A stretch of DNA of 64,000 nt from Escherichia coli (GTDB lineage: Bacteria; Pseudomonadota; Gammaproteobacteria; Enterobacterales; Enterobacteriaceae): assembly GCF_003018115.1 (NCBI RefSeq), contig NZ_CP027457.1; one strand, given 5' to 3'. Below are positions 22,392 through 26,694 of this stretch, piece by piece. The notes beneath the pieces were generated by a model. It ran no database searches, was not told where the DNA came from, and worked only from the letters and a program-made list of their open reading frames with translations. The first letter of the stretch is position 1, and each line of letters starts with the position of its first letter. The translations under genes were made by a program, and so were the position numbers.

Positions 22392-22418
22392 CGGGCACCC
22401 GAAGTGGTGCCTTTTTTA
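22392..22418 (+). terminator. Rho-independent terminator after J
   Basis: gggcacc..ggtgcc hairpin followed by T run. Confidence 0.6.
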
Positions 22419-22442
22419 TTGACTGAAAACAAAGAGGTAATC

Positions 22443-23066
22443 ATGCGGTATTTATACGGAGCCATTTTATTTTTTACTACCCTGCCGGCAGTAATGACTT
22501 TTCCTGCACAGGCTGCAGGCGGACACGGTGCATTTTCCGTGGGATATGCTCAGGTTCACCCGGGCGGCGTGCCGGTATTGTCCGGTACCGGTGCCCGTAC
22601 AGGTGATTTAAAAGGGATCAACGTGAAATACCGTTATGAATTCACGGACCATCTGGGCGGCATAGCCTCGCTGAGTTACGCCTCTGCGAAAAAGAGCAGA
22701 ACCACGATGACCGGGGATAAGGCATTTCATTATGAAAGTCTGCGTGGCCGTTATGTGAGCCTGATGGCGGGGCCGGTCTGGCAGGTCAGTGAGCAGCTCA
22801 GCCTTTATGGCATGGCCGGGATGGCGCACACCCGCTGGTCTGACAGTGTTCAGGATTACCGGCGTGATGAAGTGACACCGGGGGATGTCAGGGTGACCAC
22901 CACTGCCAGTGATGGCCATTCTGCACGTCATCTGACGCTGGCATGGGGGGCAGGGCTTCAGTTTAATCCGGCGGATACGGTGGCGGTTGATCTTGCGTAC
23001 GAAGTGGCCGGTCATGGTGACTGGCGAACGGATGCGTTTATTGTTGGGATTGGATACCGTTTCTGA
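22443..23066 (+). CDS. lom: Outer membrane protein Lom (Ail/Lom family)
   Basis: Internal Met of track ORF 22404..23066; signal peptide; beta-barrel ending in F; matches lambda Lom. Confidence 0.85.
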   Translation: MRYLYGAILFFTTLPAVMTFPAQAAGGHGAFSVGYAQVHPGGVPVLSGTGARTGDLKGINVKYRYEFTDHLGGIASLSYASAKKSRTTMTGDKAFHYESLRGRYVSLMAGPVWQVSEQLSLYGMAGMAHTRWSDSVQDYRRDEVTPGDVRVTTTASDGHSARHLTLAWGAGLQFNPADTVAVDLAYEVAGHGDWRTDAFIVGIGYRF

Positions 23067-23217: not shown

Positions 23218-25068
23218 ATGACGGTTAAAATTTCTGGTGTGCTGAAGGACGGGGCCGGTAAGCCGGTACCGGGATGCACGATAGAGCTGAAAGCGCGACG
23301 CACAACGGAGACGGTGATTGTCACCACGGTGGCGTATGGTCAGCCGGGGGAAACCGGCAGTTACAGTATGGATGTTGAGCCGGGTCTGTACCGGGTGACG
23401 CTGAACACGGAAGGGTACGCGCCGTCATATGTGGGTGACATTCTGGTGAAGGCGGAGTCTGCACCGGGAACGCTGAATAAATTTCTGATGGACCAGGAGG
23501 ACGCACAGTATTACCCGAAAGCCCTTGCAGAGCTGGAAGCGGTGGCCGCGGAAATCCTGAAACGTGCGGAAGCGTCAGCGGCGAGTGCAGAGGAAGCGAA
23601 GAAACGGGCAGAGAATGCGCGGGGACCGAAGGGGGATAAGGGAGACACCGGGCCACAGGGTATTCCCGGGCCAAAAGGCGATACCGGCGAGCGGGGGCCA
23701 AAGGGTGAGCGTGGTGAGAGGGGGCCGCAGGGGCTTCAGGGTGTGAAAGGTGAACGGGGAGAGAAGGGCGAAAAAGGCGAGCCGGGAGGACCGGATGCGA
23801 CGACGGCACAGAAGGGAATTGTGCAGTTAAGCAGCGCAACGGACAGTGATGATGAAACGAAGGCAGCCACCCCGAAAGCGGTGAAAGCGGCAATGGACAA
23901 AGCGGACGGATGCCTGGAGAAAGCGAAAAACGGTGACGATATCCCGGATAAGGTGCAGTTTCTGAACACTGTGGGAGCAGCCAGAGTATACGGGTGGGAC
24001 ATTCATACGGGGGCCGGTGAATGGACCACGAGCGAGTTTGTCGCCTGGCTGAAAGCCAAAGGGGCATTTGACCAGCCTTACTGGATGATGAAGGCATCAC
24101 TGCATGCGGGATTCAATAAGGTCATCACGGATGTCGGACCGGGAAAACTTAATCTGGGTGGCTGTGTCATTGAGGTGATGGGGAAGTATGAGGCAGCCAT
24201 AGTCCGGGTCACCATTGGCGAATACGGTGCAACGGGGTTTATTAATGGCACGGTCTGTACCTGTACGGTTTACGGCGACACACAGTATTTCCACTGGCGG
24301 GTGGATTACAGCACAAAAAACAAACCGGATACGGTCAGCCAGCGGGATGCCAGCACGACGCAGAAAGGTGTGGTGCAGTTAAGCAGTGATACTGGCAGTA
24401 ATGACGAAACAAAGGCAGCCACGCCGAAGGCCGTGAAGGCGGCAATGGATGTGGCAAATGAAGCGAAAACAAAGGCAGAAGAGGCTGCAGCAGGAGGTGG
24501 TGTTCCCGGTCCGAAAGGAGATAAAGGGGACACGGGGCCGGCAGGTCCGGCTGGGCCGGGGGGCCCTCAGGGACCAAAGGGGGATACTGGCGCTCCCGGG
24601 GCAAAAGGTGAGAAAGGAGCCACCGGCGCAACCGGGCCACAGGGAGCAAAAGGGGATAAAGGTGATCCCGGCCCTCAGGGACCAAAGGGGGATACTGGCG
24701 CTCCTGGGGCAAAAGGTGAGAAAGGAGCCACCGGCGCAACCGGGCCACAGGGACCAAAAGGGGATAAAGGTGATCCCGGTCCCCGGGGGGCAACAGGCCC
24801 ACAGGGACCAGCTGGCTCACCGGCAGGTGGTTTGCATGCTGTTGGGGCATTTGTCTTTGCTCAGGCCAGTATAAGTAACAGTGAAAAATATGCCGCAGGT
24901 GCCGTGCTTGCGGGAAGTAAACTGAGAGAATGTAGCATTCAACTGGGCTCTCAGAAAGCAGCCACATTAACCGGTAATACACTGCCAGGAACATGGCGGG
25001 TCTGTAGTCCACTTCAGGTCAGTTCAATATATCCTTACTGTGTGGGGCTGTTTCAGCGTATATCGTGA
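23218..25068 (+). CDS. stf: Side tail fibre protein with collagen-like Gly-X-Y domains (Stf-like)
   Basis: N-terminus resembles lambda Stf; two copies of a conserved fibre motif (KG-I/V-VQLSS...[10 protein letters not shown]); two collagen-like G-X-Y blocks. Confidence 0.8.
24568..24783 (+). repeat. Near-perfect tandem duplication (2 x 108 bp, 12 G-X-Y triplets each) inside the tail fibre gene
   Basis: Two adjacent 108-bp units differing at a handful of positions, in frame. Confidence 0.75.
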
Positions 25069-25335
25069 AGAGAACGACGGCAGTCAGGTGGGAACCGCCA
25101 GTGTAGCACGGTAAGGGGCAGGAAACGCTGAGCAGTGCAGATGAGATACAGGCATACAGGGGGGAGAAATAACAGACAAAAAGATGGGGGACCATCACCT
25201 CCCCCATGAACTGCGTTGATTATGTCATTATTGTGAAGGTATTCATTATGCCGGGTAAATAGTGCCACGGAAAAGTTAATTCCGGAAGTGACGGAACTCT
25301 CATTTTTCGTGCATCCTGTTGATATGGATGATTTT

Positions 25336-25665
25336 TCATATTTCCGGAAGTCCGTATTTTGCCCGGGCGCGGTTGCATGCTTCATTCGCGATGCCATTTT
25401 CTCCGGACATTGCAAATTCCCGGCATGTGGACGGACGGTTTTTGTAAACAGAGCAATATGCGTTTTCACCCGGAGTTCCCGCCAGAGCGACACATCGGGG
25501 ATTTTTCTGACTGGTGCCGCGCATACAGCGATGAAAGGGGGATATTTGCTCAGTGAGACTGACCGGAACCTTTCCGCCAGCATCGTCAGCTTCTGCCCAG
25601 TAAAAAGAGACGCGGAAAAATGCACAACAGGCACCACACGTCATGCATGGATTCGGATTGTTCAT
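25336..25665 (-). CDS. YkgJ/UPF0153-like protein with C-x2-C-x2-CC motif (putative metal-binding), prophage cargo
   Basis: 109-aa ORF with CMTCGACC motif and further conserved Cys; opposite strand to phage late genes; hairpin plus T run on minus strand just downstream (about 25185..25205). Confidence 0.55.
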
Positions 25666-25830
25666 TTTTATACTATTTGTTGTTTTTTCAGCGATCAGTT
25701 CAAAGGACGCTGAAAAAAAACATTCTCCAAAATTAAATTATAACTATTTGATTTTATGGATAGAGGCATGCTTTTTACGCAAAAGTAAAAAGCATGCCAA
25801 ATTTGCTATTAACTCTTTGAATATTCAGCA

Positions 25831-26694
25831 CTAATCATCTATTTCGGTTGCCTTCTTATTCAGCAGACGAGAAGCGCGCCAGTAAACCAGCAACATCAGG
25901 CCCATTACGATAGTCAGCGTAATGCTGGTGGCTGCACCAAACGGCCAGTCACGAATATTGAGGAACTGTACCTTGATGACGTTACCGATCAGCAGGTTTT
26001 TCGCACCGCCCATCAGGTCGGACACATAGAACAGGCCCATCGCTGGCAGCATCACCAGCAGACATCCGGCAATAATCCCCGGCATCGTCAGTGGAATAAT
26101 GATGCGGATAAAAGTCTGTAACTTGCTGGCACCGAGATCGCGCGCCGCCTCAAGCAACGGCTTATCCAGTTTTTCGATACTGGAGTACAGCGGCATCACC
26201 ATAAACGGTAGCAGAATGTAAACCAGACCGATAATCACCGCACTGGGCGTGAACATGATACGGATTGGTGTGTCGATAACGCCCAGCCAGAGCAAAAACT
26301 CGTTGAGATAGCCTTTGGTGCTGAGGAAAATTTTCAGCCCGTAGATGCGAATCAGTGAGTTGGTCCAGAAGGGAACAATCAGCAGAAACAGCAGCAGCGG
26401 ACGCACCTTGTGTGGCAGCTTCGCCAGAAACCAGGCAAACGGGTAGCCCAGCACCAGGCAGGCGAGAGTGGCGATCAGCGCCATATTCAGCGAGTGCAAT
26501 AGCACTTCAAAATAGAGCGGATCGAGCAGACGCGTGTAGTTATCCAGCGTAAAGACCATTTTGACGAAACTGGCGTCGTCGCGGGTCAAAAAGCTGGTGC
26601 CAATGATCATCAGGTTGGGCAGAAAGACAAACAACACAAGCCAACCGACAATAGTGACAATCACTACATTCTGGAACTTACTTGTGTTCTTCAT
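25831..26694 (-). CDS. potB: Spermidine/putrescine ABC transporter permease PotB
   Basis: 287-aa product matches E. coli PotB except the last few residues (ends KKATEIDD here). Confidence 0.93.

Follow-up and report, generated by a model that had tools for sequence, protein, structure and literature searches.

We examined a 64,000-nucleotide stretch of the Escherichia coli contig NZ_CP027457.1 (RefSeq assembly GCF_003018115.1), referred to here as the window, in which a lambdoid prophage meets the host gene potB, and found that the short gene lying between the prophage tail-fibre gene and potB is very probably a real and selected member of the YkgJ family of cysteine-cluster proteins. We denote this gene, of 109 amino acids (aa), as ykgJ-like. 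It was already known, as it is an annotated family member that predates this analysis. What is added here is the exact attachment (att) junction of the prophage and the paralogy of the gene to chromosomal ykgJ, together with purifying selection over the copies that prophages carry at no fewer than four integration sites and an argument from gene orientation for expression by read-through. None of these additions would surprise a specialist, and their practical value is modest.

The ykgJ-like product matched the Pfam family PF03692, labelled there as 'CxxCxxCC, putative zinc- or iron-chelating domain', over the complete hidden Markov model (positions 1-85 of 85) at E=5.1e-12 and with a score of 46.8 bits, where the cut-off is 23, which is far beyond chance, and 108 of 110 diverse homologues matched the same family. 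An earlier reading of this DNA, made from the letters and a list of open reading frames (ORFs) and referred to here as the sequence-only reading, had proposed YkgJ/CxxCxxCC membership from a CMTCGACC motif followed by several more conserved cysteines, and both the ORF with these residues and the family assignment were borne out. The quoted motif corresponds to residues 7-14 (C7-M-T-C10-G-A-C13-C14), and all eight family cysteines (C7, C10, C13, C14, C58, C71, C81 and C97) are present in ykgJ-like; across the 110-sequence family alignment the same eight are invariant or nearly so, with at least 90% conservation of the four downstream ones. The product is identical to RefSeq WP_022581964.1, named 'YkgJ family cysteine cluster protein', which is annotated identically in RefSeq genomes that carry this stretch at 98.5-100% identity. 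No NCBIfam family was found at E<=1, despite the RefSeq family name on the identical protein, and a PHROGs search gave no meaningful family.

We also considered that ykgJ-like might be a fragment of a larger disrupted gene and rejected it, as the Pfam domain is complete from end to end and the YkgJ of E. coli K-12 is also 109 aa long; the view of the ORF as an intact gene thus stood. Homologues of 131-137 aa from other genera carry a 25-aa tail that is poorly conserved. Three more ORFs of the span, of 194 aa on the minus strand and of 141 and 63 aa on the plus strand, all overlap the real ykgJ-like gene, and were rejected as they had no credible family matches and are skipped by the NCBI Prokaryotic Genome Annotation Pipeline (PGAP). 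The interval 25069-25830 to which the sequence-only reading had referred is the span between the flanking genes, not the gene itself, and phage DNA continues beyond it to 25850.

Compared with K-12 YkgJ (b0288, NP_414822.1), which RefSeq names 'putative metal-chelating domain-containing protein', ykgJ-like showed 83% aa identity in a gapless, collinear alignment, with the same CxxCxxCC motif and the same downstream cysteines. At the nucleotide level, homology to K-12 ykgJ (81%) is limited to 25349-25665; it begins at the start codon and breaks off four codons short of the stop codon, these final codons encoding LPEI in the window copy versus LTPL in K-12. When the K-12 ykgJ locus was aligned to the window, neither flank of the coding sequence (CDS) matched, including the ykgJ-ecpE intergenic region; K-12 ykgJ adjoins the ecp operon, whereas the window copy lies in a prophage with unrelated flanks. 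Synonymous divergence (dS) between the two genes is near saturation (1.28). Judged by these alignments, ykgJ-like is a diverged paralogue of chromosomal ykgJ, and we infer that the native upstream region was replaced by an att arm in this potB-integrating phage. In a search of 5426 complete E. coli genomes, chromosomal ykgJ was found in the majority, while copies at least 90% identical to the window gene were found in about 136 records and the full unit, the gene with its potB-type arm, in 66 of the genomes.

The close paralogy to host ykgJ was absent from the sequence-only reading. K-12 YkgJ shares 79-83% aa identity with the prophage copies and 73% with the YkgJ proteins of E. albertii and Salmonella, which are 134 aa long and 79-81% identical to each other. 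The 109-aa E. coli YkgJ and the phage copies may accordingly form a clade of their own, so that transfer between chromosome and phage could have gone in either direction.

The ratios of non-synonymous to synonymous divergence (dN/dS) were calculated by the Nei-Gojobori method with the window CDS as reference. The ratio was 0.055 against K-12 ykgJ, 0.21 (dS 0.31) against the copy in a prophage beside yecD/aspS (L006), 0.09 (dS 1.44) against that in a prophage beside the trp operon (L007) and 0.13 (dS 0.23) against that in a prophage beside serT-hya (L008); the prophage copies overall ranged from 0.09 to 0.24 at dS 0.23-1.5. Within the potB lineage only three CDS nucleotide differences were seen, all of them synonymous. 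The compared prophage copies have intact ORFs and keep all eight family cysteines. Those of L006, L007 and L008 adjoin tail-fibre genes and converge on them, so that the same slot, at the boundary of tail fibre and att site, is occupied at four or more prophage integration sites. The substitution pattern indicates that ykgJ-like is under purifying selection in lambdoid prophages, and the low dN/dS, the retained cysteines and the synonymous-only differences together speak for a protein with a function and against passenger DNA under drift.

The opposite explanation, that ykgJ-like is a neutral relic of host ykgJ-ecpE, acquired by aberrant excision or recombination, shuffled with tail-fibre and att modules and left intact by chance with no role, seems unlikely to us. 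It would agree with the wide occurrence of ykgJ-ecpE-derived sequence of inferred chromosomal origin in prophages (PMC8112680), with the reduction of the gene to fragments in related phages and with the lack of a recognisable promoter or Shine-Dalgarno sequence at the window copy. However, a neutral relic would hardly give the dN/dS values described above over such divergence with ORFs and cysteines intact, random breakpoints would rarely leave homology that begins exactly with the start codon and reaches to within four codons of the stop, and conservation extends to the downstream terminator as well.

The features of the prophage end are collected in Table 1. According to the alignment with K-12 potB/potC, phage DNA ends at 25850 and K-12 homology resumes at 25851, where a 12-bp core, TGAATAA(G/A)AAGG, is common to attR in the window, to attL in the E. 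coli genome FORC_041 and to attB in K-12. The PotB C-terminus VELE is changed to a phage-encoded ATEIDD and stop (25831-25850), the last six codons and the stop codon being phage-supplied, and the resulting potB' immediately precedes ykgJ-like, both being on the minus strand.

Table 1. Features at the potB end of the prophage, in window coordinates
Feature	Coordinates	Strand	Evidence
Tail-fibre gene with collagen-like repeats, last late gene, converging on ykgJ-like	23218..25068	plus	ORF list, PGAP
Intrinsic-terminator-like hairpin (8 bp, 5 G-C pairs) and T run	25178..25207	minus	terminator scan
ykgJ-like CDS, 109 aa, CxxCxxCC cysteine-cluster domain	25336..25665	minus	ORF list, Pfam, PGAP
Phage att arm, 5' leader of ykgJ-like, 30% G+C (guanine plus cytosine)	25666..25850	minus	K-12 alignment, attL/attR/attB
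potB', host spermidine/putrescine ATP-binding cassette (ABC) permease, phage-supplied C-terminus	25831..26694	minus	ORF list, PGAP, K-12 comparison
att core CCTTCTTATTCA (gene-sense TGAATAAGAAGG) in the potB 3' end, attR	25851..25862	unstranded	att comparison

The FORC_041 locus is near-identical to that of the window (99.9% over window positions 24900-26000), and the only gene annotated there by PGAP between potB and the tail-fibre gene (named 'prophage tail fiber N-terminal domain-containing protein') is ykgJ-like. The two claims that it is the sole annotated gene of this interval and that it runs antisense to the late operon were therefore upheld, the latter by the ORF list as well. In FORC_041, potA-potB'-ykgJ-like occupy one strand, the genes from tail fibre through stx2a to cI occupy the opposite one, and exo-xis-int-potC-potD then resume on the potAB strand. 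The prophage thus splits the potABCD operon, with potAB' and potCD about 45 kb apart in FORC_041. There the potC-potD pair comes right after the phage int gene in the same orientation, and the ribosome-binding region of potC itself is retained (L005 46480-46700).

In the tandem prophages of RM10809-3, the junction preserves attP, and ykgJ-like lies 341 bp downstream of int in the same orientation; this junction (L011) is identical to window positions 25666-25862, and the 100% match stops at 25862. When window 1-24783 was compared with the FORC_041 Stx2a (Shiga toxin 2a) element (L005), the tail and att end were 97-99.5% identical, while most of the head and packaging region had no megablast match to L005. 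By this comparison the window prophage and the Stx2a phage of FORC_041 are related as mosaics; the stx position falls outside the window. In O157:H7, potB is known as a site where prophages integrate (PMC9997748), and a prophage-borne ykgJ appears in the phage-region table of O157:H7 SS17 (PMC4321836). The att-proximal end of this potB-integrating lambdoid prophage is common to Stx1a and Stx2a phages.

Earlier work had already described host ykgJ-locus DNA in lambdoid prophages, near their att-proximal end. Sequence derived from ykgJ-ecpE, with an inferred chromosomal origin, occurs in many Stx and non-Stx prophages and includes a 96-bp segment, attB-in-PP_2, which has homology to the DNA between ykgJ and ecpE and at which other phages integrate into the prophage (Nakamura et al. 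2021, PMC8112680). When mapped on the K-12 locus, these published segments, which are about 81-84% identical to the chromosome, cover the first 114 bp of ykgJ and about 193 bp of upstream intergenic DNA and lie next to dinI. They serve as an integration target, whereas the window holds the complementary part, the whole CDS with no intergenic DNA. That the window copy contains attB-in-PP_2 was rejected, as its K-12 homology stops at the start codon with no intergenic match.

One could still suppose that the ykgJ-derived DNA of the window matters as an attB-in-PP_2 target for other phages, since the 96-bp segment is used for prophage-in-prophage integration (PMC8112680), the published segments comprise the start of ykgJ with its upstream region, and the L006 and L008 prophage copies do retain upstream ykgJ-ecpE homology. 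In the window, however, the 185 bp upstream of the gene are the potB-type arm and not ykgJ-ecpE DNA, the 96-bp part is absent, and purifying selection at the codon level would be left unexplained, which makes this explanation very improbable.

As for the transcription of ykgJ-like, the hairpin and T run that the sequence-only reading had assigned to the gene were recovered, and related prophages keep this terminator. It is the first terminator-like site downstream of the gene on the minus strand, with ATGGGGGAGGTGATGGTCCCCCAT followed by CTTTTTGTCT at 25207-25184, about 130 nucleotides (nt) past the stop codon, and L006 and L008 show this architecture at the corresponding place, the core of the stem being G4/C4 and the T run T7. 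On the upstream side, a scan of the minus strand of 25666-25850 for sigma-70-like promoters found no site. A lone perfect TATAAT was detected about 75 nt upstream of the ATG (minus strand, ...AAATAGTTATAATTTAATT...) with no acceptable -35 element. No canonical terminator was found between the ykgJ-like ATG and either potB' in the attR form or int in the attP form, and the gene is on the same strand as potA-potB' in the lysogen and as int in the attP form. As RNA, the 185 bp upstream fold better than shuffled sequences (z = -3.75), and the att arm contains two perfect inverted repeats, of 14 bp at 25765-25798 and 11 bp at 25683-25718, neither of which is followed by a U tract.

Given this co-orientation and the lack of a terminator or recognisable promoter in between, read-through is the best inference for the expression of ykgJ-like, and we favour it tentatively, at somewhat less than an even chance. 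In the lysogen, ykgJ-like would most likely be transcribed by read-through, as the 3' cistron of potA-potB'-ykgJ RNA, and in circular or tandem phage it would be carried as a 3' extension of int transcripts, both kinds of transcript stopping at the terminator (25184-25207). If so, this would be a case in which integration as such connects a phage accessory gene to a host operon.

Among lambdoid phages, the morons lom and bor are accessory genes arranged as autonomous units. Like them, ykgJ-like is an accessory gene with its own terminator in the slot between tail genes and att, with the difference that its own promoter was not detected. The sequence-only reading had pictured a gene likely to be expressed independently of the late operon, possibly in the lysogen. 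In line with that picture, ykgJ-like could be an autonomous moron with an unrecognised promoter in the AT-rich arm, expressed independently of potAB and int. The perfect TATAAT, the dedicated conserved terminator and the parallel with lom and bor would fit such a picture, but the TATAAT lacks an acceptable -35, the scan for promoters was negative, the arm is under constraint from its role as attP DNA and the native ykgJ upstream region is lost, and we regard autonomous expression as rather unlikely. As no promoter was found and the gene is co-oriented with potA-potB' without a canonical terminator in between, its expression may instead hinge on host read-through. An extended form of the read-through explanation, in which a moron without a promoter gains its expression through integration into potB and depends on int transcripts in the free phage, giving the cell a second YkgJ-type iron-sulfur (Fe-S) protein whose gene has lost the native ykgJ 5' region and with it, possibly, RyhB/iron-sparing control, is distinctly unlikely to hold in full; were it true, the redox, iron or cell-division behaviour of the lysogen could change.

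In phage lambda, sib/tI sits just beyond attP downstream of int, and ykgJ-like resembles it in this placement, although the analysis yielded no sign of retroregulation. The two inverted repeats, in the attP form, lie just past the core and downstream of int, again the position of sib/tI in lambda; they may have roles in Int or integration host factor (IHF) binding, RNA processing or termination. An Rfam scan of 24500-26500 gave nothing near threshold. We also observed an A8 homopolymer upstream of the ATG (25711-25718, plus strand). A database variant of 143 aa (P0001) seems to be one base off in this run, fusing an upstream in-frame ORF to ykgJ-like, which may be a sequencing artefact or may reflect a slippage-prone tract.

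With the diverse 110-sequence alignment, AlphaFold2 predicted the structure of the ykgJ-like product at a mean predicted local distance difference test (pLDDT) score of 93.6 and a predicted template modelling (pTM) score of 0.83, while a shallow alignment restricted to Enterobacteriaceae gave a pLDDT of 44. The former model indicates that the product is a real folded domain. A Foldseek search of the model against the PDB gave no match at E<=0.001, a family-profile sequence search of the PDB gave no matches either, and the best structural match in BFVD was another 'zinc- or iron-chelating domain' phage protein (E=0.12). YkgJ-type proteins are widespread, with a confidently predicted fold that is absent from the PDB, and the upkeep of a diverged copy by phages is a small argument for the usefulness of the protein to the cell.

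Chromosomal ykgJ is listed among the validated targets of RyhB, whose regulon is rich in iron-using proteins (PMC4666370, PMC8534726), and its deletion leads to filamentation in maturing biofilms (PMC8743551). When K-12 RyhB was paired with the chromosomal and prophage 5' regions by ViennaRNA duplexfold, the unconstrained duplexes were long and barely better than those of shuffled sequences. Around three distant homologues of the gene, no conserved partner was seen in the neighbourhood.

The enzyme FliB of Salmonella, at about 400 aa, is far larger than YkgJ. It is a flagellin lysine N-methyltransferase that depends on a [4Fe-4S] cluster and S-adenosylmethionine, and it shares with ykgJ-like an N-terminal cysteine motif ending in CC and eight conserved cysteines; the motif binds the cluster, which is oxygen-sensitive, and the authors of that study related the motif to PF03692 (PMC8598068). 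Compared by description, FliB has a CX4CX3CC motif and is membrane-associated and oligomeric (PMC8598068), whereas ykgJ-like has CX2CX2CC, 109 aa and a location at a prophage end. By the marks of the FliB family (CX4CX3CC, a large membrane-associated protein, flagellin genes), ykgJ-like falls outside it. A second relative is DpdM (DUF3109), a phage protein that N-methylates dPreQ1 in DNA, whose fold is unlike that of other methylases and for which YkgJ has been called the E. coli homologue; it has a CxxxCxxCC motif and eight cysteines split over two predicted Cys4 metal sites (PMC10516641). DpdM is larger than YkgJ and is encoded with dpdA and preQ1-pathway genes, whereas the annotation of the related FORC_041 prophage shows no dpdA or que genes. 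As ykgJ-like falls outside both the FliB and the DpdM families, the likeness is one of resemblance only.

Eight cysteines suffice for two four-cysteine metal sites, and by analogy with these relatives ykgJ-like probably binds two metal centres, most likely Fe-S (or zinc). As the only characterised distant relatives are N-methyltransferases that use, or are predicted to use, metal clusters, metal-dependent group transfer, redox or electron transfer is our best guess for its activity; a specific Fe-S or group-transfer role is doubtful, if possible. We therefore propose, with due reserve, that ykgJ-like may be a phage-carried accessory gene (moron) for a small cytoplasmic cysteine-cluster metalloprotein, which would bind Fe-S or zinc at two Cys4 sites and could supplement or replace the activity of host YkgJ.

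Taken as a whole, with a functional moron, read-through expression and a two-site cysteine metalloprotein, this explanation has in our judgement a roughly even prospect of being right, and several points weigh against it. Regarding function, phage Stx1a_10012 (L003) has the same att arm and only the first 66 bp of the gene, while 1720a-02 (L004) and P-EibE (AF151676.1) keep only its 3' end and the terminator region, and such fragment-only relatives imply that the phage can do without the gene. Evolution in a chromosome before capture may also account for part of the low dN/dS relative to K-12. Regarding expression, no Shine-Dalgarno-like sequence was found within 20 nt before the ATG, and read-through transcripts might still be terminated or processed at the 14-bp hairpin (25765-25798), even though it lacks a U tract. 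Regarding activity, metal binding and catalysis are extrapolated from distant relatives; the cysteine positions of DpdM run past residue 220 (PMC10516641), in contrast to the 109 aa of YkgJ, and the Pfam search gave no DUF3109 match for ykgJ-like at E<=1.

The modules that adjoin these fragments, int/att or cargo, also differ between phages, one fragment lying beside eibE. Such 5'-only and 3'-only fragments in related phages suggest that the gene is a recurrent recombination junction at the boundary of tail fibre and att site.

At the other side of this boundary, the tail-fibre gene of the window contains long collagen-like Gly-X-Y repeats and is followed by no tail-fibre-assembly gene, and in sister prophages that share this ykgJ/att end a DUF4376 gene takes that place instead. 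Just upstream of the tail-fibre gene, an outer-membrane moron of the Ail/Lom family was identified (22404-23066).
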